Part shown: positions 31,713 through 62,130 of the stretch, in pieces
Layout of the letters: every line of letters starts with the position of its first letter
Position numbering within the stretch: position 1 is the stretch's first letter
Source: a virus
Lineage: Duplodnaviria; Heunggongvirae; Uroviricota; Caudoviricetes
Virus record (IMG/VR): IMGVR_UViG_3300037087_000772
Coordinates: 1 to 64,000 of that record
Strand: one strand, 5' to 3'
Length of the DNA stretch: 64,000 bases
Notes under the pieces: generated by a model
Seen by the model: only the letters and a program-made list of their open reading frames with translations
Told to the model about the DNA's origin: nothing
Database searches by the model: none
Program-made: the position numbers and the translations under genes

Positions 31713-32216
31713 ATAAATATTAGAATCATCTATATCCCAACTTCCATCATTTTTAATATTCTTAATATAATTCGGGTAAAACATAATAAAATCTTTTCTA
31801 ATTACATCAATATCAGTATTGGACTTTTCAATAATTATACCATCATAATTTAACAATATCTTATTCTTTATATTAATTATCTCACTCTTCCATTCCTTAA
31901 CATCATTCATATAATCAAACCAAGTTTCATAAATCTTTGGATTTTCTATTTTCAAATAAACTTTTAAAATTTTCGGATTTAATTTATTGTGTGTAAAAAC
32001 TTTAGCAACCTTTAATGATTCAGTAAACCAACACCCTTTACTACAATCAAATATTTTATCAATAGTTGATTTATAATATTCACCTGTTCCGTGATAAGCA
32101 ATTAATGGATGATTATTTTCATCTACGACTTTACTTTCATCAAACCATTTATAAAAATTAGGATTTAAATTTTTATATTCTTCAAACATTTTTAGATATT
32201 TCATAGAATTTACCAT
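31707..32216 (-). CDS. hypothetical protein
   Basis: 169-aa ORF. Confidence 0.4.
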   Translation of the reverse strand: MVNSMKYLKMFEEYKNLNPNFYKWFDESKVVDENNHPLIAYHGTGEYYKSTIDKIFDCSKGCWFTESLKVAKVFTHNKLNPKILKVYLKIENPKIYETWFDYMNDVKEWKSEIINIKNKILLNYDGIIIEKSNTDIDVIRKDFIMFYPNYIKNIKNDGSWDIDDSNIYS

Positions 32217-33530: not shown

Positions 33531-33546
33531 AGAAAGATTTTTTCTT

Positions 33547-33556
33547 TATATATTAA
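33547..33556 (-). promoter_or_regulatory. TTAATATATA promoter-like motif, 16 nt upstream of the internal start of 32210..33530
   Basis: Same motif as the other occurrences; it supports the shorter gene model. Confidence 0.4.
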
Positions 33557-33584
33557 AAATTTTTGTAACCTTTTTGAATATCTG

Positions 33585-33860
33585 ATGTCAAATGGACAAA
33601 ACAAAAAAGAGATTATGAAAAAAATTATAGTATTTTTGATGTTAATGTTTATTGGAAGTATAACATTAGCTGATGGAGACAAATCAACAAAATCAGAAGT
33701 AATTATTACCACTACTATAACAAAAGAAATCAACATTGATATATTGAAGCCAATAGTACCATTGGAAGCCACCTTTGATGAGGATTCTCTTGATTCGATT
33801 AATATATATTCTTTAAGACCAACAACCCCAAAAGAAGCAACCTTTGATGATGAAAAATAA
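33585..33860 (+). CDS. small putative secreted protein with signal peptide and a PxEATFDxD duplication
   Basis: 91 aa; MKKIIVFLMLMFIGSITLA then …PLEATFDEDS…PKEATFDDE. Confidence 0.3.
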   Translation: MSNGQNKKEIMKKIIVFLMLMFIGSITLADGDKSTKSEVIITTTITKEINIDILKPIVPLEATFDEDSLDSINIYSLRPTTPKEATFDDEK

Positions 33861-34122
33861 AGATCTAAATGATGATTTTTTAAAAAACCTTTTTCAAAAA
33901 ACACCAGAATGTTGTCCATCTGATGATTTTGTAGAAAAGGTTATGAATGCTTGTTGTACCGTTGAAGTAAAACAAACATTCAATATTTTTGTGTGGTTAA
34001 GAGAAAAACAATCTAAGCTGGTGATAAGTATGACTACTGGTATAATACATTCTTTCGATAATATGTTGAAAGACTATAAACTGGTCACTCAAATTCCCCA
34101 ACCAATTCAGCAATCAATTTAG
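33844..34122 (+). CDS. small hypothetical protein
   Basis: 92-aa ORF opposite in orientation to its neighbours. Confidence 0.25.
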   Translation: MMMKNKDLNDDFLKNLFQKTPECCPSDDFVEKVMNACCTVEVKQTFNIFVWLREKQSKLVISMTTGIIHSFDNMLKDYKLVTQIPQPIQQSI

Positions 34123-37240: not shown

Positions 37241-37454
37241 ATGCTTTAATTATTTTATTGAGAATAAATGCTTCCATATCTATCATACATTTTCCATATC
37301 CATCTGGAGTTTTTTCAGTAAAATTAGAAGCGGTATCAGCTACGGCATCATGTGAGATAGACATTGTAAAATCATTTATAGTAAAATGAAACATTCCGAA
37401 TTGATATGGATCAAAAAGAATTTTATATCCACCAAATTCAATTTCTTTTTTCAT
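37215..37454 (-). CDS. small hypothetical protein
   Basis: 79-aa ORF. Confidence 0.3.
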   Translation of the reverse strand: MKKEIEFGGYKILFDPYQFGMFHFTINDFTMSISHDAVADTASNFTEKTPDGYGKCMIDMEAFILNKIIKAYEEHRNSR

Positions 37455-37966
37455 TTACTTTTTTTATTTTTCGCTGTTATAAGATCATGAATAGCCTTAA
37501 TAATTTTGGCATAAAATTTATCCAAATTGTAAACTATTTCTTGTTCTGGTCTTGCTAATTTGGTTTGAATTTCGACATCGGATATTCTCTCATATTCTTC
37601 ATCACAACCTATTACTATTTTTGTCGGTTGAGATGTACCATGTTTACCAAGTTCATATAATACAATTGGATTTAGAGATCCTTTGGAGAACCAAAAAACA
37701 ATAATATCAGATTCTCTTAATCCCTTGTATTCCCATGTTATTTGTTCTACACTGGCATTGGGATCATCAATCGGGAAATTTTTTCTACGGGGGTTAAGTA
37801 CTGTAACTTGATCTAATAAATATTTATCATATTCTTTTTTTTCAGCTTTCATTTTTTCAATGAGTTCAGCCTGCCAATCTGGACAATTGGTTATACCACC
37901 AGCCAAAAATAATTTTAATTCATTTTCTTCCTGTGGCTTATTCGGGGCTTCTATAATTTCTAACAT
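37451..37966 (-). CDS. nucleoside 2-deoxyribosyltransferase-like / DNPH1-like protein
   Basis: 171 aa; KLFLAGGITNCPDWQ…ESDIIVFWF…LYELGKHG fits the Nuc_deoxyrib_tr-like fold signature. Confidence 0.45.
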   Translation of the reverse strand: MLEIIEAPNKPQEENELKLFLAGGITNCPDWQAELIEKMKAEKKEYDKYLLDQVTVLNPRRKNFPIDDPNASVEQITWEYKGLRESDIIVFWFSKGSLNPIVLYELGKHGTSQPTKIVIGCDEEYERISDVEIQTKLARPEQEIVYNLDKFYAKIIKAIHDLITAKNKKSK

Positions 37967-41763: not shown

Positions 41764-43593
41764 TTAGATTAAGTAACCATGTGTATCAGTAACTTTAATA
41801 CTCATGTATTGTTTTTCTGGGAAGAAACCGATATCAGATACTGCGTATCTTGAACGGATTAACATTCTTGGTGCCCATGTTGCTTCACTGATTAAACTGA
41901 TAGACTGTGCCATCAAATAAGGAATGAAAACAAGACCCGGCTGGTCAATTGTGTTCTTTCTTCCTACGAAGATTTGATTGTCATCCCATCTCATGTAAGG
42001 ATCTACATAAATTTGGATGTTACCGATGTTACCCATTGGGTATAACTGACCGTTGGTGTTTAATTTACCAACATTGGTTGGGTTAAGTGTGTAACCAGCG
42101 ATATCTTGTAATACGGAAGCGATGTTACCGTTTGTTACTAAATATTGAGCTGGTCCAATTCTACCATCAGTAGCGATGAAGTTAGAAGCGTTGTTGATCT
42201 TGGCAACTAACTTTCTTTGAATTGTGTGGGTTGTTTCACCACCCGGTGCGTAACCAGTTGCTGACAAGTAGGTATCAACATTGAAGTCAAATTTACTTGT
42301 TCCGTCTGCGTTCTTTGGACAGGTGTTTGAAATTCTGTTCTTAGCTGCCAAACTTCTGATCTTAGCTACGATTTCTTTTGAAATAACCTGAGTTAATTCA
42401 TTGATAAGAACACCTTCCAATTTCTGAACGATGTCCATTCCAGTAGCGGCTTTAATATCCTCAATTTGAGTTCTCTTTAAAGCTGAACTGATTTCGATGT
42501 CACCAACGGTAACAACTTTTGTGAATACGTCAGGACCAATAACACCCGGATAGGTCTTTTCATCCTGATATCTGTTCATTGCACCACCACCGTTTGACTT
42601 GTAGTTATCTCTGTCTGCGGCTGCTTGAGCTGACCATGCATCTTCGAAACCATTTTGTCCTGCTGAAAATCCCGGTAATTGATCTTCCAATAAGGAAACC
42701 AATGTGATTGTGGCACCAGTGATATAACTTGTCCAAGTTGGAACAACTGATGTAGTTGTACCTGAAGCGTAGACGAAACCACCGATTAAAGTAGTTGTCA
42801 TGGCTGTAGTTTGGTCAAATGTATTCTTAGCTGCTGTCCAAGCTGAACCATCTTGTGGTAATACTGGACCAACTGAGAAACCAGCTTGACGATAACATCT
42901 GAAAATTGGTAATCCATCAATTCTGGAGAATCCTAAGAATTCCAACCAGTTTACTTTTGATGCTGTTCCCGGACCACTTATTAAGGTTTTACCACTACCA
43001 CCAAAGGTTGTGTCACTACCTAAATAAACCCAAGTTCTCTTATCAATTCCACCAATTCTTTCTTGAATCTGATAAACACCTAATTGCCATTTCAAATCAG
43101 CGATGATAGCTGCTGTAATAGTAGCTGCTGTTGCACCACCACCTTGTAATTTGAAAACCAATGGTCTTTGTTCAGCTTCTTGATCTTCACGAGATCCATC
43201 ACCATAAGCATTATCGTATTTGAAATCTACGAATAACAACTCAATTCTTGGAGAAGCGGTTGGTTTTACAGCTACTAAATCTAAACCGATTGTTTGAGCT
43301 GCGATCTTCATTGATACTGGAAGTAAATTCTGTGCAACATCACCACTACCGATGTTACCAGCACCTGCTTGCCATACTGAAGATGGGATAGTTCCAACTG
43401 TTGGAGCTAAAATGTTACCCATACCGTTTTGGTTAAGGTTGACATATGCCACGTTTTCATTGATATGAAGCTGGTGCATTTCAGCGTATTCGGCCATCCA
43501 TTCTCTTTTTTCTTCGTCCTTTACTTTTAAGGCTTCGAGGATTGGTGTCCATTTCTTTAAAGCTTTTGCTTTGTCTACTATAAAGTGTGTCAT
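41764..43593 (-). CDS. major capsid protein, T4 gp23-like
   Basis: 609 aa. Position in the portal–protease/scaffold–MCP order; N-terminal propeptide-like region; overall resemblance to gp23, including the C-terminal segment (…PYLMAQSISLISEATWAPRMLIRSRYAV…). TATAAATA-like motif about 25 nt upstream of the ATG; strong terminator downstream. Confidence 0.75.
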   Translation of the reverse strand: MTHFIVDKAKALKKWTPILEALKVKDEEKREWMAEYAEMHQLHINENVAYVNLNQNGMGNILAPTVGTIPSSVWQAGAGNIGSGDVAQNLLPVSMKIAAQTIGLDLVAVKPTASPRIELLFVDFKYDNAYGDGSREDQEAEQRPLVFKLQGGGATAATITAAIIADLKWQLGVYQIQERIGGIDKRTWVYLGSDTTFGGSGKTLISGPGTASKVNWLEFLGFSRIDGLPIFRCYRQAGFSVGPVLPQDGSAWTAAKNTFDQTTAMTTTLIGGFVYASGTTTSVVPTWTSYITGATITLVSLLEDQLPGFSAGQNGFEDAWSAQAAADRDNYKSNGGGAMNRYQDEKTYPGVIGPDVFTKVVTVGDIEISSALKRTQIEDIKAATGMDIVQKLEGVLINELTQVISKEIVAKIRSLAAKNRISNTCPKNADGTSKFDFNVDTYLSATGYAPGGETTHTIQRKLVAKINNASNFIATDGRIGPAQYLVTNGNIASVLQDIAGYTLNPTNVGKLNTNGQLYPMGNIGNIQIYVDPYMRWDDNQIFVGRKNTIDQPGLVFIPYLMAQSISLISEATWAPRMLIRSRYAVSDIGFFPEKQYMSIKVTDTHGYLI

Positions 43594-43697: not shown

Positions 43698-46154
43698 TTA
43701 GTATCTGTTAAGAACATTTTTCATATGCTCAACTTGTTCATCAGAAAGTGAATAATTATCGTATGTATTTATGTTTTCATTCAATACTTTCTTTCCTGTG
43801 TTAGCTTGTGCATATTGTAGAAGATCTCTGGTTAACCAGAATGATTCTACTTTTTTCTCCGTAGTTAAGTCAGTATAGAATTGTGCTGTATCTAAAATAC
43901 TTTCTTGTACTTTCGGATTTAATTTTTCCCAAATTGGCTGTAAGTCACTTGGAATATTTTCAACCAATGTTTCATTTAATGATCTGGTTGGTTTGAACAA
44001 TGCTTTCTGCATTAATATAAGAACATCACTTTCGTTTGAATAATTTCCCTTGTTTTCGTTCATGACAAAGTTTACTTTTTCCTTATCTTCTGGAGTTAAA
44101 CCATAATAAGCGGCTTTCTTCTTTTCAGGTAAGAATAATAAGAAGTGAGGATCTTCTGTCTTAGCGGCTTCGCGTTTTTTAGCGGCTTCGATGAGTTTCT
44201 TTATGTCTTTTGTTATCTGATTCGTATTTTCGTAAATTTTGGTTGTACCTAAAATTGTAAGTCTACTTTCTTCGACTTCAACTTCTTCGCCAGTATCTCC
44301 CATTTTTACAACTACAATTTTTGTAGTATCATCTGTTGCGAGAACTTCACCTGTACGAGTTGGTTCTTCAGTAGCTCCTTCAGTACCTTCTGGTTGTGCT
44401 GTTTCTTCATCTTTATCTCCCTTAACAGTAACAATCATACCCGGAGTAATACCTAAACCTGTTTCTTCTTGTGGTGGAACTTCCTCAGTATTTACACCTT
44501 CAGCATCCTGAGCTGGTGTTTCTTCTACTGGTGGTGTTTCACCTTGTACTGGTGCTTCCTGAGCTGGTTTTTCTTCAGCTGGAGGTGTTTCCTGAGCCGG
44601 TTCTTCAACCTTAGGTTCTTCTGTTGCACCATCTGCTGGTTTTTCTTCTGGTTTATCTTCATAATAATTTGAAGGATCATCAGTTGTCATATCACCAATG
44701 GCTTCAGTAACACCTAATTTCTCAACAACTCTCTTTGTGTAGTCAATGTGTCTATCAATGACTTCTGCTTCATATTTTTGATAAGCGATAGAATCGGTAA
44801 GATTTTCAGCCAACATTTCTGAATAACGGATACCGTTATCAGTTTGTTCTGCTACATATTCACCATATCTGATAGCGTTATCTACATGCTCGGCGATGTA
44901 TTGAGTATAATCAACAATCTTTTCTGCACTTTCACTGATGTAATCGGCGTAATCAACAAGATTGTCAACCGTTTCGGCTACATATTCAGCGTACATAATG
45001 TTCTTATCGAGATGTTCTGCGATATAATCAGCGTAATCAGCTATCTTATCAAAGTTTTCAGCGATGTATTCACTATATTTAATAGTGTTTTCAGTCTGTT
45101 CAGCTACATATTCGATAAAACTAATACCGTTATCTAACTTTTCAGCGATGTATTTTTGATAATCAATAACTTGGTCGGTTGTACCTGCTAAATAATCAAT
45201 ATAACCAATTGTTTTTTCGACTGCTTCTGCGATGTGGTCGTTGTGTTCGATAATGAGTTTTGTTTTTTCTTTGTTTTTCTCAACTCTTTCTTCCAGTTTG
45301 TCGTTTGTTTTCTTCAACTGTTTGTTTTCTTGAACTAAAACATTAATCGCGTCTGCTATCTGATCAAGATATTCGGCCATTCTTTTTTGACCCTCGGATA
45401 ATGTTTCGAATTCTTCATAAAGGCGAGAGAGTTTTTCCGGATCGAAATTCTTTGAATTAAGAGTTTCTTCAATGGAATTTTTTGTTTTCAATAACTCACT
45501 GTCTAAATAGGATTTGAACTCTTCCAATTTTGTCTGAGTTCCAATTTCGTTTTTTTCCATATTGAACAATTCATTTATTTTTGACTCCTCAGATATATCG
45601 AATATCCTGAAGTTTAAATTTTCATTGAATCCCAATGATTCATTCATGTTTTTCAATTCCATTCGGGCTGAACTAAATCCGGGGTCTGCAACACAATCAT
45701 AGGTGAATAACTTTTTAATTGTTACTTCACCATTCGATTCTGTTACACCGGCAGCTCTACTGGAAACGAAAATAGGTAGGTCATCATCTACAAGAGCTTG
45801 TGCTTCCTTTCCATAAAAGGTATTAGTTAATTTAATTTCTCCATCAACTCTATTGGTTTCCTTTATAAACCAAGCATTTTGAATTGTATGAGAAATACGA
45901 GTTAAGCTAGTATCAAATACATCTGGATGATCAAACTCTCCATAGACAACTTTTAACAGTTTTTTTCTTTCTAATAATTCACTAAGATGGGGTAAGAATT
46001 TCTCTGCGGTGTAAATCCTGTCATTTCTATTTCTAATATTGAATTCTGTAAAAATACCCTTCATGATATATAGGATATTACCCTTACTACTTACGACCTC
46101 ATTGATTTTCTCCAGACCACCCAATGTATTATCAATTATTATTACATTTTTCAT
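43698..46154 (-). CDS. prohead core protease (T4 gp21/S77-like N-terminal domain) fused to a repeat-rich acidic scaffold (gp22-like) region
   Basis: 818 aa. N-terminal …YIMKGIFTEFNIRNRNDRIYTAEKF… resembles the prohead protease family. The central ~180 aa has about 10-12 tandem 14-aa repeats (xYxEYVAExxDxxI). It is followed by a Pro/Glu/Thr-rich acidic linker and a C-terminal domain. Confidence 0.6.
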   Translation of the reverse strand: MKNVIIIDNTLGGLEKINEVVSSKGNILYIMKGIFTEFNIRNRNDRIYTAEKFLPHLSELLERKKLLKVVYGEFDHPDVFDTSLTRISHTIQNAWFIKETNRVDGEIKLTNTFYGKEAQALVDDDLPIFVSSRAAGVTESNGEVTIKKLFTYDCVADPGFSSARMELKNMNESLGFNENLNFRIFDISEESKINELFNMEKNEIGTQTKLEEFKSYLDSELLKTKNSIEETLNSKNFDPEKLSRLYEEFETLSEGQKRMAEYLDQIADAINVLVQENKQLKKTNDKLEERVEKNKEKTKLIIEHNDHIAEAVEKTIGYIDYLAGTTDQVIDYQKYIAEKLDNGISFIEYVAEQTENTIKYSEYIAENFDKIADYADYIAEHLDKNIMYAEYVAETVDNLVDYADYISESAEKIVDYTQYIAEHVDNAIRYGEYVAEQTDNGIRYSEMLAENLTDSIAYQKYEAEVIDRHIDYTKRVVEKLGVTEAIGDMTTDDPSNYYEDKPEEKPADGATEEPKVEEPAQETPPAEEKPAQEAPVQGETPPVEETPAQDAEGVNTEEVPPQEETGLGITPGMIVTVKGDKDEETAQPEGTEGATEEPTRTGEVLATDDTTKIVVVKMGDTGEEVEVEESRLTILGTTKIYENTNQITKDIKKLIEAAKKREAAKTEDPHFLLFLPEKKKAAYYGLTPEDKEKVNFVMNENKGNYSNESDVLILMQKALFKPTRSLNETLVENIPSDLQPIWEKLNPKVQESILDTAQFYTDLTTEKKVESFWLTRDLLQYAQANTGKKVLNENINTYDNYSLSDEQVEHMKNVLNRY

Positions 46155-46271: not shown

Positions 46272-46616
46272 ATGCTAATTTCAAAGATTGTTCAGATTGT
46301 AATTACGAAAAGAAATATCGGATTTTTTCGTAAAAAAGGATACGATGCTGAAATGATGGATACCCTTAGTGTATTTGTGGGAGATTTACCCGAAAATAGT
46401 CATTGTGAAGTTGATGTTTCTTGTGATAATTGTAAAAAAATTAGAAAAATGAAATATTTTGAGTATAAAAGATATGGTGATAAATATATGTGTAGACAAT
46501 GTTCGGAAGGTAAAAGGCAAGAAACAAGCATGAAAAATTGGGGGGTTGATAATCCCTCCAAGAGTGATATAATAAAACAAAAGATAAGTGATACCTTAAA
46601 AAAATTAAAATCTTAG
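46272..46616 (+). CDS. small zinc-ribbon protein with NUMOD-like C-terminus (possible homing-endonuclease remnant or DNA-binding protein)
   Basis: 114 aa; CEVDVSCDNCKK…CRQCSEG Cys4. The C-terminal NWGVDNPSKSDIIKQKISDTLKK resembles NUMOD3-type DNA-binding modules of free-standing homing endonucleases. Opposite in orientation to the flanking head genes. Confidence 0.35.
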   Translation: MLISKIVQIVITKRNIGFFRKKGYDAEMMDTLSVFVGDLPENSHCEVDVSCDNCKKIRKMKYFEYKRYGDKYMCRQCSEGKRQETSMKNWGVDNPSKSDIIKQKISDTLKKLKS

Positions 46617-48427
46617 ATAGTGGGTGTTTGTCCACCACCTTGTCCTTGTCCACCGGCCTGACCACCTCCACCCTGAGGTCCACCAGCTGGGCCACCCTGA
46701 GGAACACCACCTTGCGGTGCACCACCCTGAGGACCACCAACACCACCTTGCGGTGCACCACCCTGAGGACCACCAACACCACCTTGAGCACCACCTTCAG
46801 GGGCACCACCTTCAGGAGGCGGAATTTCTCCACCACCACCCGGACCACCACCACCCGGCTCTTCTGGTGGATTTAATCCCTGCTCTAGCATAAATTTCTT
46901 TCGTTCTATCATTTTATATTTCTCATTTTCTTCAATATCTTTATCAGTGAATTTCATGATATTACGGGCTATCCATTCAACACTTAAATATGGTTTATCT
47001 CCCATATCTCTTAAATTACTGGATAGATTGGCTGCTATTGATGCCCTTTTATCTAAGTTGGCTAAATATTTCCATTCTTCAAATAACACATCAGAATTAA
47101 ACATTAACTTCATAGAGTTAAAGAATACAACATCTTTCTTTAATTCTGGAAAATTCAAAATCATTTGAATTCTCAAAGGTTTAGTAATAATTTCTTTAAA
47201 AATGGTTCTAATACGATTGATAAAATTCTTGAACTTAATTTCATCTCTGGTTATCTGAGTAGTTGAGTCATATAATGTACCACCACCACTTTCTTCTTCG
47301 AATCTTTGGAATGGAATTTTACTTGCTCTTTTAAAATTCTTAAAGAACCATTGTAAAGTAACATCTTCTGCTAGATTATTTTGTTCTGGTTTTACTATTT
47401 CGAATGATGGTGTTTGACCAGCACTTGATGGAAACCAGAAATCTTTTGCGTGAGGAATGTTTGTACTTCCATTCATCATAACCAATCCTAAGTGTTCATC
47501 CCATTGAACATCTTCATGGTAATCGGACATTAATTCATAAATCTGTTGTTCGGCTTGTTGACGGGATAAACCATCAACTGGAATTATAAATTTTTTGTAA
47601 AGAGAAGCTTGATTAATATTGTATAATAATTTTGCCTGTTCAATCATTTTTAATTGATTAAAAGGTCTAATAAGGTTTTCAACATAACTTGTATCACCAT
47701 ATTCATTATTATTAGAATATGATATGTATACAATTTGTGAATCCAATAATACTCTACGAAGTTGAGGATTATCTGGGTATTGAATCCAGATCATTGTATT
47801 GGATACTGGATCTGTAGCCACAATTAATGTTATTGGATCAAGTGGGGCCAAATCTATGATATTTTTTTGACGATCATCATAAATGATTTCATAAGCGATA
47901 TAACCATCAATCAATAAACTTTTAAGATAATTCCAAGCAACGACACCATCAATAAAATTGAATTCGTTCATTAATCTATCAAACACTTCTTGATATTTTT
48001 GTCTTGTTGTTTGGTCGTAACTATCTGGTAAATCCTTTATATAACAAAATTTGTTATTGTCATCATATATAATACACTCATCACATATTTGAATGATGAA
48101 GTCCTTTATTTCATCTTTGATTGAATATTGTCTTAGAATTTTTCTTTTATCTAAATATGTTCTATCTAAATAGGCTATTGATTTCTTATCGAGAAAACGA
48201 GCAATCGTTTTTTTAGTAAATAAATCATACATATTTGTACTCTGGGGATGGTATAAAACATCACTCGTTTCTTCATGAACACCCAAGGCATAAGCATTTT
48301 TGATCTTCATATCATTATAATCAAGACCACCAAAAACATTAGATAATCCTCTTAAAACTCTGTTGAAAATTGTCGGGTTTTGTTGGGCTGACTGTTGACT
48401 TGAATAATCACCTCTATAACTTGCCAC
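46613..48427 (-). CDS. portal vertex protein, T4 gp20-like, with Gly/Pro/Gln-rich C-terminal extension
   Basis: 604 aa; YDSTTQITRDEIKFKNFINRIRTIFKEIITKPLRIQMILNFPEL closely parallels T4 gp20 [38 protein letters not shown]. The C-terminal ~90 aa is GC-rich tandem-repeat-encoded low complexity (GGVGGPQGGAPQGG…). Confidence 0.75.
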   Translation of the reverse strand: MASYRGDYSSQQSAQQNPTIFNRVLRGLSNVFGGLDYNDMKIKNAYALGVHEETSDVLYHPQSTNMYDLFTKKTIARFLDKKSIAYLDRTYLDKRKILRQYSIKDEIKDFIIQICDECIIYDDNNKFCYIKDLPDSYDQTTRQKYQEVFDRLMNEFNFIDGVVAWNYLKSLLIDGYIAYEIIYDDRQKNIIDLAPLDPITLIVATDPVSNTMIWIQYPDNPQLRRVLLDSQIVYISYSNNNEYGDTSYVENLIRPFNQLKMIEQAKLLYNINQASLYKKFIIPVDGLSRQQAEQQIYELMSDYHEDVQWDEHLGLVMMNGSTNIPHAKDFWFPSSAGQTPSFEIVKPEQNNLAEDVTLQWFFKNFKRASKIPFQRFEEESGGGTLYDSTTQITRDEIKFKNFINRIRTIFKEIITKPLRIQMILNFPELKKDVVFFNSMKLMFNSDVLFEEWKYLANLDKRASIAANLSSNLRDMGDKPYLSVEWIARNIMKFTDKDIEENEKYKMIERKKFMLEQGLNPPEEPGGGGPGGGGEIPPPEGGAPEGGAQGGVGGPQGGAPQGGVGGPQGGAPQGGVPQGGPAGGPQGGGGQAGGQGQGGGQTPTI

Positions 48428-49319: not shown

Positions 49320-49838
49320 TTAAAATAATTTTACTTTTGGATTGTCTTTATCTTCAAAAAACTTAGGTGTTATTATATAAAATTCAATCCCTTTTTTTTC
49401 ACAAAATTTCTTAGCAGCTGACCACTTGATAATATTTTTCTGAAATGTTCTCAAAGCATATTCGTAATTCTTCAAGGATTTTGCTGTTTTTGTCTTAGGT
49501 TCTTTTGGTGGTTCAAAATTTCTATATTCACTCCAAGGTTTTATTTCTAAAACAACTATACGAGTACTACCATCACTCTTTTTAAATTCACAATAAGCGT
49601 CAGGATAATAACGATGTGTACTCCAATTTCCATGTTCATTAACTTCATATGGAATTGTTAATCCCTCAGCTGACCACTTTAAAACTCTATTATTGTTGTC
49701 TAAATAGTAATAGAGTTTCCTTTCCCAAGATGATCTAAAATAAATTCTTTCAAGATCTCCCAAATATTTATCTGGGTTCATACAAACATAAAGACCCTGA
49801 TGGTATTTTTTATTATTAGGTGGATGACTATTTCCCAT
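49320..49838 (-). CDS. hypothetical protein
   Basis: 172-aa ORF; promoter motif at 49855..49864, 16 nt upstream. Confidence 0.45.
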   Translation of the reverse strand: MGNSHPPNNKKYHQGLYVCMNPDKYLGDLERIYFRSSWERKLYYYLDNNNRVLKWSAEGLTIPYEVNEHGNWSTHRYYPDAYCEFKKSDGSTRIVVLEIKPWSEYRNFEPPKEPKTKTAKSLKNYEYALRTFQKNIIKWSAAKKFCEKKGIEFYIITPKFFEDKDNPKVKLF

Positions 49839-54741: not shown

Positions 54742-57309
54742 TTAATCATATACTAATGTCCACCCTTTCAATATAAGATTATTTCTTGATACCTGAGATA
54801 TCGTAGTAACATGAGCATTAAGACCAGCTATTCCCATTCCCGATGTATTTATATACCCATTTAAAAGTCCATTGGAATCAAGTATGTTAAAGAATTTATC
54901 CACATCAACAAGATTATTATTACTCAAATCTAAATGGGTGAGATATAGTAATCCAGTAATATCAAAATCTGGTAAAATATTATTAGATAATGTCAGAGAT
55001 GTTAGATTGTTTATATTCATCACATTAGAAATAAATATACCACCACCATTTACTGTTACTGATCTTAGATACTGTAAATCCCCTTGGAAGGTTATACCAA
55101 AGAAATTATTAGCGGAATATGTATGACTTCCTATGTAATAACCATTAAAAGTAATGGTTTCTAATCCATCCCCCCAATCTATATCCAATGTTGTTGGTGA
55201 GATACTTTGTAAGATATAATTAAACACCATTCCAATTGTTGCTTTGATCTTAAATGAAAACGATCCATATGCTGTCGTTCCAGTTGTACTTCCACTTGTT
55301 GCCCCCGTTAATAAATCATATGTTATCACTAAATTTTCACTTAAAATTGGAATTGGTATTTTTGTGTGTTTATCAACACCAATCTCAATCAATTCTATTG
55401 GTTTGTAAATTAAATTAGGATCATAACTAAAAGTTATATTTCCACCATTGTTCATTAAATTTTCAGGATTGTACATTTCCAGAACGAACTTATGATTATC
55501 GTCTTGAGTTAATAAAGCTGTAGTATTTTTCGTTATATTTATATCATTTTCGATAATTCTGGAATATGAAATACAAATATCTTTTCTTAAATCATCATCT
55601 TTAACTCTGTACCAATCGTTTTCTTCATTCTTATAAACAGAATATAATAATTCCGATATTCCTGTCAGAGTATAAATACTATCTATACTTGTTATGGTTA
55701 ATCCAGAATTACTCTTATATGTTTCTATAATGAAATATTCATTTGGAACATAATCTACAATCAATGTTTTGTAAATTGAATTCAAATTAACAAAAGTATG
55801 ATTTTTTAGAAAATACATATCAGATGGGTTTGTCGGTGTAATCTTCACATAAGTTCCTTTTGGATACATTCCTAAATATTCCGAACTTTGAATTTCATTA
55901 AAAGCTGTTAATCCCGATGTAAATAATGTCAAATTAACATCACTCAAAAAAGAATACGAATTATTAAAAATAGTTGGATTTATCGAATTCAAATGTTCAT
56001 ATAATTTATATTTCGAATAAGAATTAGTGGTAGAAAATGAATATTCAGTATAAGAAACTCCACTATAAATAATTTGTAATCCATCATAATCAAAATAATG
56101 ATTATATTGATAATAAGTTGGAGATACATTTAATGATGGATCGACATAAAAATATTTGGAGTGATAAGCTGAATTTAAAATAGTTTGGATATTACCTATT
56201 GTTGACCATTGAAGATTTGTAATTGTATATGAATAACCACTTAAATCAGTCAATAAATTATTTGGAATAGGATCTTTCAAAGACACATAATAATCAACTG
56301 AATTGTCTTTACTTTTTATAAATGTATTGTAGAAAAGACTGGTATTTCCTGATATTTCAATTTGTACATAATCATTTAAATTTGTATTACTATAAAAATT
56401 CGAACTCACTTTAACAAAAGTATAAACTGATTCATTTGTAGCTGTTAACCACCATTCATCATATTTATTAAACATCGTACTTCCAGATGTAATTCCCGTA
56501 TAAATAAATTTGGTTGTGTCTGGATCAAGTATTATAATATATTCGTTATCATGATATTTAATCACGACTTTATCACCATTATTAAGAACATTAGAAACAT
56601 TGAATCCTGTATAAAGAGAATAATTTAATGGATTCATGTGTCTTGCTATATCATAATCAGTGAAAATCAATTTAGGAATTGGTATTGTCGCCCCCAAATT
56701 ATAATTGAAGAAATTTTTTATAATATAGGTTTTACCCGACATATAATCAGCTGATTGATATGATACTGGAAAATAATCCCCTACATTTTTTAAATGATAT
56801 TCCTTGTGTTTATTATCACCCAGCTTGACATAACCTTTGTATCTAAATGTATTCCCCGAATCAGCCATAAAATCTGATCTAATTAAAAATCCTCTTTGGT
56901 CGACATTGTATAATCCATTTTGGGTTTTATCTGATTGATTTACCAGAAGGACTTTATGTTTCGTCTTTAAATAAGCATTATCAATCGTATAATATCTTAG
57001 GGTCAAATCTAAACTCGATGTACTACATACATCAACACTATCCATATTGACCATGAAATTATTTATAATATCAAATTCATTATACATATTGTAAATACAC
57101 CAATTCTTTCCGACCATTGGATTTTTATTATAAATATCATCGAGAGTATTAACATATTGATAGGTGATACCAGATAAACATTTTTGGTATTTAAAATAGT
57201 TATCTGGGATATAAGTTACCCCGCTCCAATAAGCATCTAATCTCTCTTCTCTCAACCAAGTGTCGCCATTCAAAGTCCAATCAAATTTGATGTTCCATAT
57301 GTCTTTCAT
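54742..57309 (-). CDS. large structural (tail/fibre?) protein with C-terminal leucine-rich repeats
   Basis: 855 aa; C-terminal NLTSLTLSNNILPDFDITGLLYLTHLDLSNNNLVDVDKF are LRR units. Co-oriented with the downstream fibre-like gene; promoter motif at 57337..57346. Confidence 0.45.
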   Translation of the reverse strand: MKDIWNIKFDWTLNGDTWLREERLDAYWSGVTYIPDNYFKYQKCLSGITYQYVNTLDDIYNKNPMVGKNWCIYNMYNEFDIINNFMVNMDSVDVCSTSSLDLTLRYYTIDNAYLKTKHKVLLVNQSDKTQNGLYNVDQRGFLIRSDFMADSGNTFRYKGYVKLGDNKHKEYHLKNVGDYFPVSYQSADYMSGKTYIIKNFFNYNLGATIPIPKLIFTDYDIARHMNPLNYSLYTGFNVSNVLNNGDKVVIKYHDNEYIIILDPDTTKFIYTGITSGSTMFNKYDEWWLTATNESVYTFVKVSSNFYSNTNLNDYVQIEISGNTSLFYNTFIKSKDNSVDYYVSLKDPIPNNLLTDLSGYSYTITNLQWSTIGNIQTILNSAYHSKYFYVDPSLNVSPTYYQYNHYFDYDGLQIIYSGVSYTEYSFSTTNSYSKYKLYEHLNSINPTIFNNSYSFLSDVNLTLFTSGLTAFNEIQSSEYLGMYPKGTYVKITPTNPSDMYFLKNHTFVNLNSIYKTLIVDYVPNEYFIIETYKSNSGLTITSIDSIYTLTGISELLYSVYKNEENDWYRVKDDDLRKDICISYSRIIENDINITKNTTALLTQDDNHKFVLEMYNPENLMNNGGNITFSYDPNLIYKPIELIEIGVDKHTKIPIPILSENLVITYDLLTGATSGSTTGTTAYGSFSFKIKATIGMVFNYILQSISPTTLDIDWGDGLETITFNGYYIGSHTYSANNFFGITFQGDLQYLRSVTVNGGGIFISNVMNINNLTSLTLSNNILPDFDITGLLYLTHLDLSNNNLVDVDKFFNILDSNGLLNGYINTSGMGIAGLNAHVTTISQVSRNNLILKGWTLVYD

Positions 57310-57388
57310 TGTAGATTCAACAAGGTAATTTCTTTTTATATATTAAATTAGTGTCTTTCCTTTTTAATAAGAAAAAACTATTTTTGAT

Positions 57389-57399
57389 TTAATATATAA
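57389..57399 (+). promoter_or_regulatory. TTAATATATAA promoter-like motif (25 nt upstream of the ATG of 57425..58531)
   Basis: One of about 12 near-identical occurrences at a fixed distance from start codons. Confidence 0.4.
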
Positions 57400-57424
57400 A
57401 AAGAAAAAATCTACTTCCCCTGAC

Positions 57425-58531
57425 ATGATATATAATATACAAAATCAAATTGACTTATCAGGATTCTACATTGTCTATAATGGTGTTGTCGTAAATGAAA
57501 AAGAGGGAACTTATGGAATATCTCATTTAATAGAACATTTAGTATGTAAAAACTTGAATGATGAATTTGTGGATTCATTAGAAAAAAACGGTATAACTTG
57601 GAATGCTTATACAACACCGAATAATATAGTTTTCTATATCAAAGGTTTAGATGATTATGTTTATAATTTCAAAAATGAATTTCTTCAAAAAATCACAAAC
57701 TTCAAAATAACTCCTGATGTTTTTAAAATAGAAAAAAATGTGGTTTTAGAGGAATATACCGACTTATTCAATAGGTATAATAAAAATCATTTTCTCAATT
57801 TATATAGAAAAGTACTAAACAACTATAATTCAGTTGGGAAAAAAGAGGACATAGAACAATTAACAATGGAAAAATGCTTAGAACATTATTCGCAGTTTTA
57901 TAGTAATCCATCTAAAATAATATACATATCAAAGAAATATAAAGAAGAAACAACAAATATAACCTTTGATGATAAGTCAAGTAAAAAAACTTTTAAATTA
58001 GGAACATATGATTATACCTTAGAAACTCCTTTATTATCTGGAAATAAATCTTCTATTATTTACCTTTCTCCAATAATAAATGAAGATTTCGATAAGATAA
58101 TATTCATCAACTATCTTCTATCTGGAGGATTAAAATCTCCGTTATATAAAGCAATTAGAGAAAAAAATAGTTTGGCTTATTATATCAACTGTCGTATTGA
58201 TCGTCTGGATGATAAAGGAATCATAATTATTTCAACCGAAACGAGCGATGTTAATGTGGAAAAATTAAATGAAACTATAATCAATGTTTTTAAAGAAAGA
58301 TCCTATTTAACCAGAGAAAAATTTGAAAGTGTAAAAAATTTCATTAAAATCAGTTTGATAAAATCGAATATTAACTTACAAGACAATGAAGATAAATTCA
58401 TTCTCCCCCAGAATTGGCTTATAGAAGATACAATCGACAAGTTAACTTATGAGGATATTATGGTGGCTTTTGATAAATATTTCAACATCAATGACTTCTA
58501 TAAAAGTGTAAATAAAAATGAATTTTCTTAA
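57425..58531 (+). CDS. M16 (pitrilysin/insulinase)-family peptidase-like protein
   Basis: 368 aa; EGTYGISHLIEHLVCKN matches the inverted zinc motif HxxEH of the M16 family. Confidence 0.45.
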   Translation: MIYNIQNQIDLSGFYIVYNGVVVNEKEGTYGISHLIEHLVCKNLNDEFVDSLEKNGITWNAYTTPNNIVFYIKGLDDYVYNFKNEFLQKITNFKITPDVFKIEKNVVLEEYTDLFNRYNKNHFLNLYRKVLNNYNSVGKKEDIEQLTMEKCLEHYSQFYSNPSKIIYISKKYKEETTNITFDDKSSKKTFKLGTYDYTLETPLLSGNKSSIIYLSPIINEDFDKIIFINYLLSGGLKSPLYKAIREKNSLAYYINCRIDRLDDKGIIIISTETSDVNVEKLNETIINVFKERSYLTREKFESVKNFIKISLIKSNINLQDNEDKFILPQNWLIEDTIDKLTYEDIMVAFDKYFNINDFYKSVNKNEFS

Positions 58532-58652
58532 ACTTTTGATACACAAAAAAATATATTAAATTGACCGTAAAAATTCAAAAAATCAGTTTTTTTTTATTAA
58601 TATATAAGTTAAATATTTTTGTAGGCTTCAATGGTAAATTTTAGGGCATGGA

Positions 58653-58859
58653 TTGAATGGGTTGAAAAATAATTTAAAAAAAATAAAAATTAGAAAAATG
58701 TCAGAACAGCAAGAACAAAGAATATCCTTTGTATTAAAAAATTTCATAGAAGAAATATCCAAAGACCTAAAGCTCACAGAAGAACAAAAAACAGAATTAA
58801 AAAAAATGGCTATTGAGGATACAAATAAACTCTTTAACTATAGCTTGGAAATCAAGTAA
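58653..58859 (+). CDS. small hypothetical protein
   Basis: 68-aa ORF, lysine-rich. Confidence 0.3.
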   Translation: MNGLKNNLKKIKIRKMSEQQEQRISFVLKNFIEEISKDLKLTEEQKTELKKMAIEDTNKLFNYSLEIK

Positions 58860-58943
58860 TTTTAATTTTTTTATGACAGAAATTTTCTTATATTTGTATT
58901 CAATTCCCAAAAAATAGAATCGGGAAGTAAAAATAATTTATAT

Positions 58944-59468
58944 ATGAACAAAAACAACAGAGAAAAAACAGAAAAAATCAATCATCAAATTACATCTCAT
59001 TCAGTTAGACTAATATTTACAGATGGAACTCAACCATATGTAACCACAACAACGGAAGCTTTACAATTGTCGAAAGACTTGGGTGTGGATCTAATTGAAA
59101 TTTCACCAACAGCAAACCCACCAGTTTGTAAAATGATGGATTACAATAAGTTCCTTTACGAAAAGAAACAAAAAGACAAAGAAAATCAGAAAAACAATAA
59201 AAAAATAAAATTGAAAGAGATCCGTATGACTTATAATACGGGAGAACATGATTTCAATTTTAAATTAAATCATGCCATCAATTTTCTCAACGATGGTGAT
59301 AAAGTTAAAGCCTTTATATTTTTCGCTGGCCGAGAGCTAAAATTCAAAGAAATCGGGGAATTATTATTGTTGAAATTCGTTGATGGACTTAAAGAAGTCG
59401 GAAAAATTGAAAATATGCCTAAACTGGATGGTAACAGATTGTGGGTCATAATCCAACCGAAAAAATAA
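58944..59468 (+). CDS. infC: translation initiation factor IF-3 homologue
   Basis: 174 aa. Co-linear with bacterial IF3 over its whole length: VRLIFTDGTQ…ALQLSKDLGVDLIEISPTANPPVCKMMDYNKFLYEKKQK…KLKEIRMTYNTGEHDFNFKL…FLNDGDKVKAFIFFAGRE…MPKLDGNRLWVIIQPKK against E. coli …VRLTGLEGEQ…[29 protein letters not shown]…[20 protein letters not shown]…FLEEGKKAKITLRFRGRE…TKIEGRQMIMVLAPKK. Confidence 0.85.
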   Translation: MNKNNREKTEKINHQITSHSVRLIFTDGTQPYVTTTTEALQLSKDLGVDLIEISPTANPPVCKMMDYNKFLYEKKQKDKENQKNNKKIKLKEIRMTYNTGEHDFNFKLNHAINFLNDGDKVKAFIFFAGRELKFKEIGELLLLKFVDGLKEVGKIENMPKLDGNRLWVIIQPKK

Positions 59469-59515
59469 ACAAAACTGATTATATTTGATATATACTAATA
59501 GAAAATAATAACCTA

Positions 59516-59776
59516 TTGAAAATGAATCGTTTTATTTTATTATTTGAGGAACTTATCAATACTATTTTTAACAAGAGAAAGAAATATATAGTGGAAATTG
59601 TTAAATATCAGGATGATAATGGTAATGATGTTCCTATTGGATCAATCACTCAGAACGAAAAACTCGTTGATAAATTTGAGACCTACACATATTCCAGAAG
59701 ATTAGCCTACAAGATCGGAAAAACTGTAAATGCCGTCAAATATGACGGAAAGTTCGACATCAGGATATATGAATAA
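59516..59776 (+). CDS. hypothetical protein
   Basis: 86-aa ORF. Confidence 0.35.
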   Translation: MKMNRFILLFEELINTIFNKRKKYIVEIVKYQDDNGNDVPIGSITQNEKLVDKFETYTYSRRLAYKIGKTVNAVKYDGKFDIRIYE

Positions 59777-59824
59777 TTTTTTTATTCATGAAATTGTCGT
59801 ATCTTTGTCAAAAATTAAACAATC

Positions 59825-60316
59825 ATGAGAAATAATTGGTTCATACGATTACGAATACGATTTAGAAATTATAGAAGAAATGTCGCGAAAAAGATTGAGG
59901 GTCAAGATGTTCTGAATGTTGATCAGCAATTGGGATTTGACATCTTCAAAATAGCTCTACAAGATGAAGGAAATATTCGTTATTATGATGCACCAAATGG
60001 GGCCAATACCTCTCACATAAAATACATCGTAAGTAAAGAATACTTTCAAGGGAAAAAGGATGTAGATACTTTCATTATTTTTGATGACGCTCAGGATAGG
60101 GGTAAAATGATTGTAGTAAATCACGAATATAAATACAATTTTGAATTTCCCAAGAGAACAACAAATATAATGAATGATATATTTGACGATACAGTAAGAA
60201 AAGACAGAAAGAGGATGAAAGAAGAAATTTTGGCTAACATTACCACAAGTCTTACTATTGTATTGACCAAACTTAAAGAAAAAATGTTGGAATCCAAAAA
60301 ACCCCTACCTAAATAG
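59825..60316 (+). CDS. hypothetical protein
   Basis: 163-aa ORF. Confidence 0.4.
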   Translation: MRNNWFIRLRIRFRNYRRNVAKKIEGQDVLNVDQQLGFDIFKIALQDEGNIRYYDAPNGANTSHIKYIVSKEYFQGKKDVDTFIIFDDAQDRGKMIVVNHEYKYNFEFPKRTTNIMNDIFDDTVRKDRKRMKEEILANITTSLTIVLTKLKEKMLESKKPLPK

Positions 60317-60331
60317 TACTTTCTCCAAGTA

Positions 60332-61375
60332 TTAGATATTTATCGAATTTTTCATATTTTCGTAAAGTTGTTTTGGTGTTGATTCTTCATCCAATTTCAC
60401 GATTTTTAGGTTTCTTTTCAATCTTTCCATAATTATAACATCTTGGCTATTGTCTAATCTCTTGCTAAACTTAATTATCTCAAGCAGGTTGTCTTTAAAT
60501 ACCTGAGAGTTAAAATCTATCGTGCCGGGATATGTCCCCTTATATAGAGTATAAATCGTTTGAATACCAGCATCTCCAATCCCACGATTTCCCTGCATAA
60601 AGATTGATTTGATATTATCTTTTCCATGACCCATTATCTTTCTGAAAAGTTCGAATTCATTATTTATCTCAACTGTCTTTTTTCCATTGAGAAATTTTTC
60701 GAAAAATTCAACGAATTCCATTTCATTATTTGTTTGAAAAAGATTATCCTCAAAAGTCTTAACGATATTATCAGTGAACATATTATATTGTTCTGGTAGA
60801 TAAACCCTTTCATCATTATATTTGAAATTATACATCATATTGATGTATTTGAGATCTAATCCATCATAGCAAATAAGTTCATATAAATCACTATCAGACG
60901 ATACTATAAACGTTGATTCCCCCTTTTTGTTTAAATTCTTTACAAGATATGCCATTATATCATCACCTTCCATCCTATCGACTTGAAGTAAATCAACAGT
61001 TTTTTTGAATGATATGGCTGTTTTTAATTCACCATATTCTTGATAAATGAATTTCCAATCTATATCTTCGTCTTTTTTTCTTGTCCCTTTATATTCAGGA
61101 TAAAAGTCTTTTCTCCAATTACCAGTGGAATCAGAGATGAAAAATGTTTTACGAAAATGAAAAAGGTGGGTTAAAATGTTGAAATCCCTTTCCAAAATAT
61201 TATATAATTCCGAATAAAGGATCTTGTTTTTCCAGAGAGTACTTATATTTTTTCGTAAAAGATAATTCCCATCAATAAGCAAATTTAAATTAATCATTAA
61301 GGATTGATTATTTTTCCTTATATAAAGTAGGTAAGAATGAAAGTTTATTATTTTAAGTGAGTGGAATATCTTCAT
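60332..61375 (-). CDS. rnh: RNase H / flap endonuclease (5'-3' exonuclease, T4 rnh-like)
   Basis: 347 aa; STGNWRKDFYPEYKGTRKK, DRMEGDDIMAYL and VSSDSDLYEL match the conserved FEN/5'-3' exonuclease motifs (YKxxR, EADD, SxDxDLxQL). Confidence 0.75.
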   Translation of the reverse strand: MKIFHSLKIINFHSYLLYIRKNNQSLMINLNLLIDGNYLLRKNISTLWKNKILYSELYNILERDFNILTHLFHFRKTFFISDSTGNWRKDFYPEYKGTRKKDEDIDWKFIYQEYGELKTAISFKKTVDLLQVDRMEGDDIMAYLVKNLNKKGESTFIVSSDSDLYELICYDGLDLKYINMMYNFKYNDERVYLPEQYNMFTDNIVKTFEDNLFQTNNEMEFVEFFEKFLNGKKTVEINNEFELFRKIMGHGKDNIKSIFMQGNRGIGDAGIQTIYTLYKGTYPGTIDFNSQVFKDNLLEIIKFSKRLDNSQDVIIMERLKRNLKIVKLDEESTPKQLYENMKNSINI

Positions 61376-61757
61376 CTGAAAGAATCCAATCTAATTTGAG
61401 CCTTCTTTCTTCATTAGTCATATAAGGTAGTTTGTCTTGATAATCAGCCAACATATTTGGTTTTTCTGGATCATCATTAATTACTCCTTCAGACTCCATC
61501 AAATATAATTTATTGTCATTAATTTTATAAAAAGGTGTCTTTTGGGGTGATTCTCTGTATATCATTTCGGTACAACCAAAAATAGAACCAATAGGATGTT
61601 CTTCTCGGATACTATGTGAACAAGATATATTTAATGTCACATCTAAATCCTTACCATTCAATTTTTGTCCACCAAGAACACGAACACGAACTTTCTTATC
61701 TTTTTTCCTGCTACCATTTTCTTTTTCGTAACAAGTTTTAACATAATAATAAGCCAT
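61353..61757 (-). CDS. hypothetical protein (occupies the dsbA-like position upstream of rnh)
   Basis: 134-aa ORF. Confidence 0.35.
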   Translation of the reverse strand: MAYYYVKTCYEKENGSRKKDKKVRVRVLGGQKLNGKDLDVTLNISCSHSIREEHPIGSIFGCTEMIYRESPQKTPFYKINDNKLYLMESEGVINDDPEKPNMLADYQDKLPYMTNEERRLKLDWILSDEDIPLT

Positions 61758-61818
61758 ATCTCTGATTTTTTAATAAAGTTAAAAAAAAAATTCGAATAAA
61801 AAAATTAAAAGATTAGAT

Positions 61819-62130
61819 TTATATCATATAAGTTACTTTATCAAAACGAGGAAGAACAAGAGGTTGATTGTTTTCATCAAGCCCCATATTCACTTCATAA
61901 GTATAATAAATAGTGACTGAATTTAATTTTTCTTTTTTAACTGGTTCACTACCATCTTCCGTTAATAGAGTTTCAGTTTCATAATTTAATTCAACACCCG
62001 GAATCTCACCAATCAAAGAATGTAAATCATTTTTAATTTGATTCGTATTTAAATTTCTTTCACTCAGGTCATATTGACTTGAAAAATAATTATTTATTTG
62101 CATTTTTTTGAAATTAGCTATTTCATCCAT
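61819..62130 (-). CDS. hypothetical protein
   Basis: 103-aa ORF; promoter motif at 62154..62163. Confidence 0.35.
   Translation of the reverse strand: MDEIANFKKMQINNYFSSQYDLSERNLNTNQIKNDLHSLIGEIPGVELNYETETLLTEDGSEPVKKEKLNSVTIYYTYEVNMGLDENNQPLVLPRFDKVTYMI

Follow-up and report, generated by a model that had tools for sequence, protein, structure and literature searches.

The DNA considered here is a stretch of 64,000 nucleotides of a tailed virus (IMG/VR record IMGVR_UViG_3300037087_000772, positions 1 to 64,000; hereafter the window). It carries an open reading frame (ORF) that encodes a full-length, two-domain homologue of translation initiation factor IF3, the product of the bacterial infC gene. 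The 174-residue protein matches both Pfam domains of the family over their entire profiles. IF3_N (PF05198) is aligned from profile position 1 to 70 of 70 (residues 12-81; E 1.7e-27, 95.8 bits against a cutoff of 26.9), and IF3_C (PF00707) from 1 to 86 of 86 (residues 88-173; E 5.4e-29, 100.4 bits against a cutoff of 34.8). The NCBIfam infC 'equivalog' profile TIGR00168 scores 185.7 bits against a cutoff of 60 and is covered over positions 2-169 of 170, and PHROG 9787, 'translation initiation factor', is matched as well. Alignments to the solved IF3 chain 5me0_Y (E 9e-40, residues 12-173) and, by HMMER, to the Escherichia coli IF3 chain 8jsg_A (E 4e-39, residues 8-174) run without large gaps.

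The AlphaFold2 model of the protein (mean predicted local distance difference test score, pLDDT, of 87) consists of an N-domain, a helical Lys-rich linker and a C-domain. The linker aligns without gaps to those of E. coli and G. stearothermophilus IF3. The residues that contact the elbow of the initiator tRNA in E. coli IF3, R25, Q33 and R66 (PMC9723500), have their counterparts R22, Q30 and K63 in the N-domain, and Y72 corresponds to E. coli Y75. These results bear out the sequence-only reading, which had claimed an infC homologue co-linear over both domains and had proposed a profile search for IF3_N and IF3_C; its own proviso, a C-terminus unrelated to IF3, is ruled out by the bona fide IF3_C domain and by the close fit of the model to 1TIG. 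The motif strings given in that reading are essentially right, except that DLVEISP is DLIEISP in the actual sequence. The features of the locus and of the rest of the window are collected in Table 1.

Table 1. Features of the IF3 locus and of the window (positions in the window; AF2, AlphaFold2; rmsd, root-mean-square deviation; TM, template modelling score).
Feature	Position	Strand	Details
IF3 (infC-like) coding sequence	58944..59468	+	174 aa, ATG start, TAA stop; ORF list, sequence, profiles
N-terminal domain (residues 12-81)	58977..59186	+	Pfam IF3_N; AF2 model against 1TIF, rmsd 2.0 Å, TM 0.85
Lys-rich inter-domain linker helix (residues 67-84)	59142..59195	+	YNKFLYEKKQKDKENQKN / KFLYEKKQKDKENQKNNKK; DSSP on AF2 model
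C-terminal 30S-binding domain (residues 88-173)	59205..59462	+	Pfam IF3_C; beta-alpha-beta-alpha-beta-beta (AF2: E-H-E-H-E-E); AF2 model against 1TIG, rmsd 1.2 Å across 86 columns, TM 0.92
Loop FFAGR (residues 126-130)	59319..59333	+	equivalent to E. coli 129-RFRGR-133; HMMER alignment to E. coli IF3
A-rich leader without Shine-Dalgarno sequence	58914..58943	+	ATAGAATCGGGAAGTAAAAATAATTTATAT
TAnnTTTG box, putative own promoter	58889..58896	+	TATATTTG; 55 nt upstream of the IF3 ATG; motif scan
Peptidase M16	57425..58531	+	upstream neighbour; Pfam on identical loci, tblastn synteny
Small ORF	58653..58859	+	between M16 and IF3; 68 aa (53 aa from internal start); 38-53% identity in relatives; called as a gene on identical loci
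Downstream ORF	59825..60316	+	163 aa; 33-47% identity, same position in relatives; no Pfam match
5'-3' exonuclease/FEN	60332..61375	-	convergent downstream neighbour; PF02739 on identical loci; 53-55% identity in relatives
Hybrid sensor kinase (PAS, HisKA, HATPase_c, receiver)	62180-63991	-	runs past the window end; 753 aa on identical locus L007
gp23-type major capsid protein	41764-43593
Prohead protease	43698-46154
T4-type portal	46613-48427
Family B DNA polymerase ORF	34085-35560	-	491 aa; exonuclease domain and first ~140 polymerase-profile positions only
PTH2-type peptidyl-tRNA hydrolase	2525-2941	+	Pfam E 2.5e-30
Cold-shock-domain protein	13347-13535	+	Pfam E 2.1e-14
J-domain protein	13612-13962	-	Pfam E 7e-19

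The genome that carries this gene is that of a huge phage. The major capsid protein, the prohead protease, the T4-type portal and a family B DNA polymerase are encoded on the same 64-kb piece, as expected from the claim that the factor belongs to a phage, and Pfam confirms all three of the other genes that had been pointed out, those of PTH2, a cold-shock protein and a J-domain protein. A scan of the window for tRNA genes returned none, and the window yielded neither a ribosomal protein nor, besides PTH2, any translation factor. The capsid protein is 68% identical to those of the 735-kb genomes LR756501/LR756503, 48-50% identical to those of genomes of 634-642 kb, 32% to that of LR756500 and 28% to those of Lak phages. 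By these identities, the phage is a member of the clade named 'Mahaphage' by Al-Shayeb et al. (2020, Nature 578:425; PMC7162821), for the largest members of which Bacteroidetes hosts were predicted. An identical IF3 protein is found on 17 metagenomic contigs, which include a 597-kb JGI contig and the longest of which is 736,551 bp. A megablast search of positions 57000-62000 against the INPHARED phage collection returned no nucleotide-level match.

The IF3 gene is an old resident of this phage lineage. It lies in a block in which an 855-aa protein (-) is followed by the M16 peptidase (+), the small ORF (+), IF3 (+), the 163-aa ORF (+), the FEN nuclease (-), a 103-aa ORF (-) and the PAS-HisKA-HATPase-REC kinase (-). 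As detected by tblastn, the same block recurs in the IMG/VR contigs L001-L003, in the metagenomic contigs L096, L098 and L108-L110, and in LR756501 (L099). The block is shared with relatives of 53-77% identity. The proteins of the block are 33-61% identical among relatives, IF3 being the best conserved of them. The pairwise ratio of nonsynonymous to synonymous substitution (dN/dS, Nei-Gojobori) is 0.07-0.27 for the IF3 gene, and 0.12-0.15 in the three least saturated pairs (dS 0.94-1.11), which is a signature of purifying selection.

These observations bear on a passenger origin of the gene, whether by recent capture of infC from a host, by contamination or mis-binning of bacterial DNA, or by chimeric assembly. 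Some 'phage' IF3 records in the databases, from Vibrio and Pseudomonas, are indeed such cases. The best identity of the window protein to a cellular IF3, however, is just 52-56%, the genes rpmI and rplT are not found nearby, the phage synteny block around the gene recurs in numerous independent samples and contigs, the window has structural genes of a phage at a distance of 11-17 kb, dN/dS is about 0.1, and the GC content matches that of the surroundings (26-37% across the AT-rich window). A passenger origin is therefore extremely improbable, and the recent host-derived fragment that the sequence-only reading had named as its possible undoing is ruled out by the conserved phage synteny and the purifying selection.

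The relationships of the phage factor were examined with a neighbour-joining tree of 177 non-redundant sequences over 162 core columns. The phage-type IF3 proteins form a clade in 191 of 200 bootstraps. Its sister is a small group with two viral sequences, from the 229-kb IMG/VR contig L006 and from LR756500 (462 kb), and the cellular IF3 proteins of Bacteroidota come next. The phylogeny against host infC that had been suggested as a check thus gives a phage-only clade, the nearest cellular relatives of which are Bacteroidota IF3s. As gathered here, the clade numbers at least 85 sequences, and a targeted IMG/VR scan found its IF3 type on 17 contigs of 24-243 kb. Among the species representatives of GTDB, the best 80 of at least 583 confirmed matches (from at least 600 pattern hits) are all of the cellular type, are 46-54% identical to the window protein and belong almost entirely to Bacteroidota. 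The clade is marked by the signature R-x-T-Y-N-T-G ... F-F-[S/A]-G-R-E ... R-L-W, which appears in the window protein as RMTYNTGEHDF, FFAGRE and NRLWV. The window gene also has the position that is typical of the clade, between M16 and the small ORF on one side and the ORF and FEN on the other, in a huge phage with a T4-like capsid.

Other huge phages carry IF3 genes that fall elsewhere in the tree and lie in other neighbourhoods (LR756504, LR756511, Atu_ph07/Phosso and Turkey5); large phages have thus captured IF3 several times. Such separate acquisitions argue for a general benefit of the gene. The Agrobacterium phage Atu_ph07, the Sinorhizobium phage Phosso and the E. coli phages Turkey5, vB_EcoM_JNE01 and Sharanji have likewise been annotated with a two-domain IF3 (PMC7824862, PMC11895373). 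In contrast to the window protein, the IF3s of these jumbo phages represent independent acquisitions, are 33-39% identical to it, belong to phages of other host phyla, and are encoded next to ClpX-like or ClpS genes. Two further records were set aside. The 'phage' IF3 of MK672802 (L107, Vibrio phage Va_90-11-286_p16) belongs to host thrS-infC-rpmI-rplT DNA beside an integrase, and that of MT121966 (L106, a Pseudomonas record) lies at the end of its contig and was treated as host DNA. Both are artefacts of prophage boundaries, and such records make IF3 seem commoner in phages than it is.

The IF3 of huge phages is already known, and the window gene adds a member to it. The rarity that the sequence-only reading ascribed to a phage translation factor does not hold, as Al-Shayeb et al. 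(PMC7162821), who listed IF3 among the translation genes and built trees, had already described IF1 and IF3 in huge phages, and as an orthologue is present in their 735-kb genome LR756501. Huge-phage IF3 appears again in PMC7824862, PMC11748809 and PMC11895373. The Mahaphage proteins of LR756501/LR756503 belong to the same family, carry the signature RFTYNTGDHDF ... FFSGRE and are encoded in the same M16-small ORF-IF3-ORF-FEN block, in phages with the capsid similarity given above and the predicted host phylum Bacteroidetes (PMC7162821). They differ from the window IF3 in being 53% identical to it and in having Ser, not Ala, at the position equivalent to E. coli residue 131. This level of IF3 identity, together with the lack of a nucleotide-level match, indicates a phage species or genus distinct from LR756501. 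The phage IF3 clade, its synteny, its ATG start and the absence of a basic residue at 131 were not found in the full-text literature searched, which covers few subscription journals, and the loop, the start codon and the synteny are not mentioned in the passages of PMC7162821 that were consulted.

The closest cellular proteins, the IF3s of Bacteroidota such as Flavobacterium johnsoniae, resemble the phage factor in their two domains and SD-less (Shine-Dalgarno-less) context, with identities of 46-56%, and share with it the motifs NT.(D/E)HDF.FK..HA..FL, LLLKF and P-K-L-(D/E)-G-x-R. They possess a basic, Gly/Arg-rich N-terminal extension of 10-45 residues, which the phage proteins lack. Their genes differ as well. 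Bacteroidota infC stands in an infC-rpmI-rplT operon, rpmI-rplT following it directly in 66 of 80 loci, and often starts with ATA, ATC or ATT: in about 30 of the 80 loci one of these codons is the sole possible start, or the sole one that preserves the conserved N-terminus. The ATA start of F. johnsoniae infC has been mapped experimentally and autoregulation was inferred (PMC7797042). The phage gene, in its phage block, begins with ATG at 58944, as does every phage orthologue examined, so that the autoregulatory AUU start anticipated in the sequence-only reading is absent. Two in-frame ATA codons upstream (58890 and 58914) were considered as near-cognate starts and rejected, since the frames of the orthologues are open for merely 0-6 codons before the ATG. 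No match to L35 or L20 was found near IF3 in any phage locus examined, that of the window included. Among Chitinophagaceae and relatives, ten loci (L015, L021, L027, L034, L036, L061, L072, L075, L082 and L094) have an infC with ATG and without rpmI-rplT after it, unlike those of Flavobacteriales and Bacteroidales; the start codon and the operon layout thus vary within Bacteroidota.

The signals around the gene are of a kind familiar from Bacteroidota. A-rich leaders without a Shine-Dalgarno sequence are expected for initiation of the Bacteroidota type, and TAnnTTTG is the consensus of the Bacteroidota -7 promoter element. In the window an SD-like 4-mer is present at -22..-5 of 4 of the 83 genes, against a background of 8.8%, and the A content at -13..-11 is 64-69%. 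Of 84 window genes, 12 have a TAnnTTTG box 20-80 nt before the start, where 0.048 per gene would be expected, which is an enrichment of about threefold. Such a box is found 39-55 nt before the ATG in six of six relatives of 73-77% identity, the window counted among them. The SD-less starts, the A-rich tract and the boxes fit transcription and translation signals of the Bacteroidota type. Four consecutive genes on the + strand (orf68, IF3, orf86 and orf163) have boxes 25-55 nt upstream, at 58614, 58889, 59480 and 59800. A scan for sigma-70 promoters around IF3 gave 10 promoter-like sites, with 11.6 expected from shuffling and hence no excess. A terminator scan of the same region likewise showed no excess over shuffled sequence; its one terminator-like site is on the wrong strand, inside the coding sequence. 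Under the longest-ORF rule, the start codons of the window genes are 72 ATG, 8 TTG and 3 GTG, a count not used as evidence on relaxed fidelity. The host of this Mahaphage-type lineage most likely belongs to Bacteroidota, as judged from these signals and from the nearest cellular IF3s.

Most of the functional core of IF3 is retained in the phage protein. R22 and Y72 (E. coli R25 and Y75) are invariant across the 85 phage-clade and 80 Bacteroidota sequences, and K63, D103, F104, K107, H110, G129 and R130 of the window protein are invariant or nearly so in the same set; in E. coli, the residues that pair with K63, D103, F104, K107, G129 and R130 are R66, D106, (Y/F)107, K110, G132 and R133. The phage clade departs from its cellular relatives in the loop equivalent to E. 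coli RFRGR. Ala128 of the window protein (codon GCT, 59325-59327) takes the place of E. coli R131. At this position the phage clade has Ser in 66, Ala in 13, Asn in two and His in one of its 85 sequences, only three being basic (82/85 non-basic). In Bacteroidota the residue is Arg in 47 and Lys in 31 of 80 sequences (78/80 basic), the two exceptions, L086 and L093, having Val. A basic residue at position 131 of the RFRGR loop, which is a conserved motif and not a formal criterion of the family, is thus lacking in the window IF3. The flanks of the loop are strongly conserved in the phage clade: F127 is found in 83/85, G129 in 83/85 and R130 in 85/85 sequences, and E131 of the window protein is invariant or nearly so. 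With the sequence F-F-S/A-G-R-E in the phage clade, as against F-F-R/K-G-R-T/S/A in Bacteroidota, the net charge of the loop falls from +2 to 0.

The replacement of Lys or Arg at position 131 is lineage-specific. As Lys or Arg is present in the sister phage group and in the cellular relatives, the change of the loop is derived and has then been maintained. The idea that the loss is general to phage IF3 was rejected, because Atu_ph07 and Phosso (loop RFKGRE), LR756500, LR756504 and the IMG/VR lineage L128-L133 keep Lys or Arg. Further differences between the phage clade and Bacteroidota are found in the C-domain, in E. coli numbering, at positions 99 (Thr against Gly), 100 (Tyr against Pro, each in 100% of the sequences), 103 (Gly against Asp), 134 (Glu against Thr, Ser or Ala), 170 (Leu against Met) and 171 (Trp against Ile).

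The properties of position 131 are known from E. coli, in which R131 touches start-codon nucleotides +2 and +3 and the base at +4 (PMC11775629). In the R131P variant, leaderless mRNAs, non-AUG codons and initiator tRNAs devoid of the three G-C pairs are used more often for initiation, and the replacement of RFRGR by the mitochondrial KKGK relaxes the discrimination between AUG and GUG and relieves the inhibition of leaderless translation (PMC11775629). Mycoplasma IF3s naturally carry Pro, Phe or Tyr at this position (PMC11775629). The phage IF3 is similar to E. coli R131P and to the IF3s of mycoplasmas and mammalian mitochondria in having a loop without R131, and such R131-less variants are linked to the tolerance of start codons other than AUG, of atypical initiator tRNAs and of mRNAs without a leader or an SD sequence (PMC11775629). 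It differs from them in the replacing residue, Ala or Ser, and in the presumed context of a Bacteroidota ribosome; the mitochondrial factor, in addition, has N- and C-terminal extensions that the phage factor lacks. With these precedents, the change at position 131 suggests that the proofreading of initiation may have been retuned. It also gives a concrete form to the proposal of the sequence-only reading that a viral IF3 could re-tune initiation or compensate for host shut-off.

By putting these observations together, a role for the phage factor can be proposed. The window gene likely encodes a working IF3 that acts on the host 30S subunit, is free of the start-codon feedback of its host counterpart, and sustains or speeds initiation and ribosome recycling. 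The phage IF3 would probably be made from its own promoter. Having an ordinary AUG on an SD-less, A-rich leader, its gene would escape the IF3-dependent negative feedback that limits host infC with its AUA, AUC or AUU start. The C-domain would then bind the host 30S subunit and the N-domain the initiator tRNA. A larger supply of IF3 would lead to more free 30S subunits and to a faster turnover of initiation complexes and recycling, and the translation of the very large phage transcriptome might be sustained by the extra factor. Beyond duplicating the host IF3, a loop of the Ala128 type might shift proofreading so that weak or unconventional initiation complexes are tolerated.

In its fullest form, the proposal would have the cell flooded with an IF3 of relaxed proofreading. 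The R/K131 to S/A change of the loop, with E134 kept, and the shedding of the near-cognate start would combine to alter which initiator tRNAs, perhaps one encoded by the phage, and which start sites the host ribosome accepts, such as phage starts that are weak, SD-less, non-AUG or leaderless. This we regard as tentative and rather doubtful. If true, it would amount to a viral reprogramming of initiation fidelity and go beyond a simple extra supply.

The same substitutions could be read in an opposite sense, with the phage protein not as a general helper but as a competitive hijacker or shut-off factor that occupies the IF3 site of the 30S subunit, its uncharged loop blocking host mRNAs or biasing initiation against them. 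The fixation of the loop substitution in the clade (82/85 non-basic) and the additional clade-specific changes of the C-domain at the six positions listed above would fit such a role, and the AUG start would permit over-production free of feedback. A pure blocker, however, would need the C-domain alone, yet the N-domain, the linker, R22, K63 and Y72 have been conserved to the same degree as in the cellular factor, and purifying selection acts across the whole gene. Moreover, phage and host mRNAs appear to share an SD-less architecture, which leaves no obvious basis for discrimination between them. A blocking function is accordingly unlikely.

It is also possible that the phage factor is a plain duplicate, which provides extra dosage or replaces host IF3 lost in the course of infection or defence, and that the change at position 131 is neutral on Bacteroidota ribosomes. 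All core IF3 residues are kept, other phage IF3 lineages retain Lys or Arg at 131, and Val at this position is tolerated by two Bacteroidota (L086 and L093). The host IF3 is already unlike that of E. coli at several C-domain arginines, and the F. johnsoniae factor behaves unlike E. coli IF3 in vitro (PMC7797042). On the other side, the substitution has been held over a radiation that extends down to about 53% identity, with F127, G129 and R130 at its flanks invariant or nearly so. As the cellular relatives have kept Lys or Arg, and the sister group of phages has too, the pattern looks more like a fixed functional shift than like drift. The IF3 of the E. coli jumbo phage Turkey5, acquired independently, also has Ala at this position (loop KAAGR). 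The plain duplicate remains a serious contender, although we put it somewhat below an even chance.

Several points weigh against the proposal of a working phage IF3 with retuned proofreading. The functional role, which includes the timing of expression, the binding to the host ribosome, the escape from autoregulation and the change in fidelity, is deduced from sequence comparison and a predicted structure. Since other phage IF3s keep Lys or Arg at 131, the benefit of a phage IF3 does not depend on the loop change. The E. coli C-domain arginines R99, R112, R116 and R129 are likewise non-basic in the host IF3s of Bacteroidota, and residue rules based on E. coli may not be directly transferable. 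The TAnnTTTG box is present in only 8 of 21 clade members and in 2 of 15 of the distant ones. The tree is a neighbour-joining tree of 162 columns and not one of maximum likelihood. The assignment of the host draws only on the nearest cellular IF3s (52-56% identity, Bacteroidota), the SD-less starts, the promoter motif and the published prediction for the clade.

Phage IF3 has so far been known from genome surveys. The clade described here differs from its close cellular relatives at a residue that is tied to the discrimination of start codons and initiator tRNAs by E. coli genetics and by mitochondrial IF3; the corresponding pairs at positions 131, 100 and 103 are K/R, P and D in Bacteroidota and A/S, Y and G in the phage proteins. 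This difference turns the notion that phages may redirect translation into a question about a single residue, for which an F. johnsoniae initiation system exists (PMC7797042). If the effect is one of dosage only, the gene would be nothing more than an ordinary auxiliary gene in a huge-phage genome.

Some observations concern the surroundings of the IF3 gene. The hybrid sensor kinase at the end of the window is found in the same block of L001, L003 and L098 with 51-55% identity, and the retention of a two-component signalling protein by a huge-phage lineage is unusual. A gene of ribosomal protein S21 lies about 8 kb from IF3 in the relative L095 (18680-18874); none was found in the window. IS605-type OrfB/TnpB genes are located close to the IF3 block in L096 (14593-15813) and L097 (248-1405).

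Other observations relate to the remainder of the window. The ORF that follows the polymerase ORF, of 569 aa at 32210-33919 (-), has no Pfam or PHROG match, and the pair may represent a split or highly diverged polymerase. A cation-diffusion-facilitator gene (Cation_efflux and ZT_dimer) is distributed over two consecutive ORFs, 4276-4653 (-) and 3777-4238 (-); the gene is a pseudogene with a frameshift, or else the phage transporter is truly split in two. Two ART-PolyVal ADP-ribosyltransferase-like ORFs, one weak and one with E 1.4e-13, a microbial PARG (ADP-ribose glycohydrolase) and a HAD_SAK_2 'Swiss-army-knife RNA repair' domain are found at 12728-13228 (+), 31707-32216 (-), 28006-28890 (+) and 27514-27987 (+), respectively. 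From their domain matches, these genes possibly form a writer/eraser set of ADP-ribosylation that would serve host takeover or counter-defence. The window further encodes a TnsA-like endonuclease N-domain (49320-49838, -), an N6/N4 DNA methylase (30978-31712, +), a nucleoside 2-deoxyribosyltransferase-like protein (37451-37966, -), a 775-aa SPFH/Band-7 protein (8359-10686, +) and a DUF1848 protein (24001-24768, +; E 3.9e-83).

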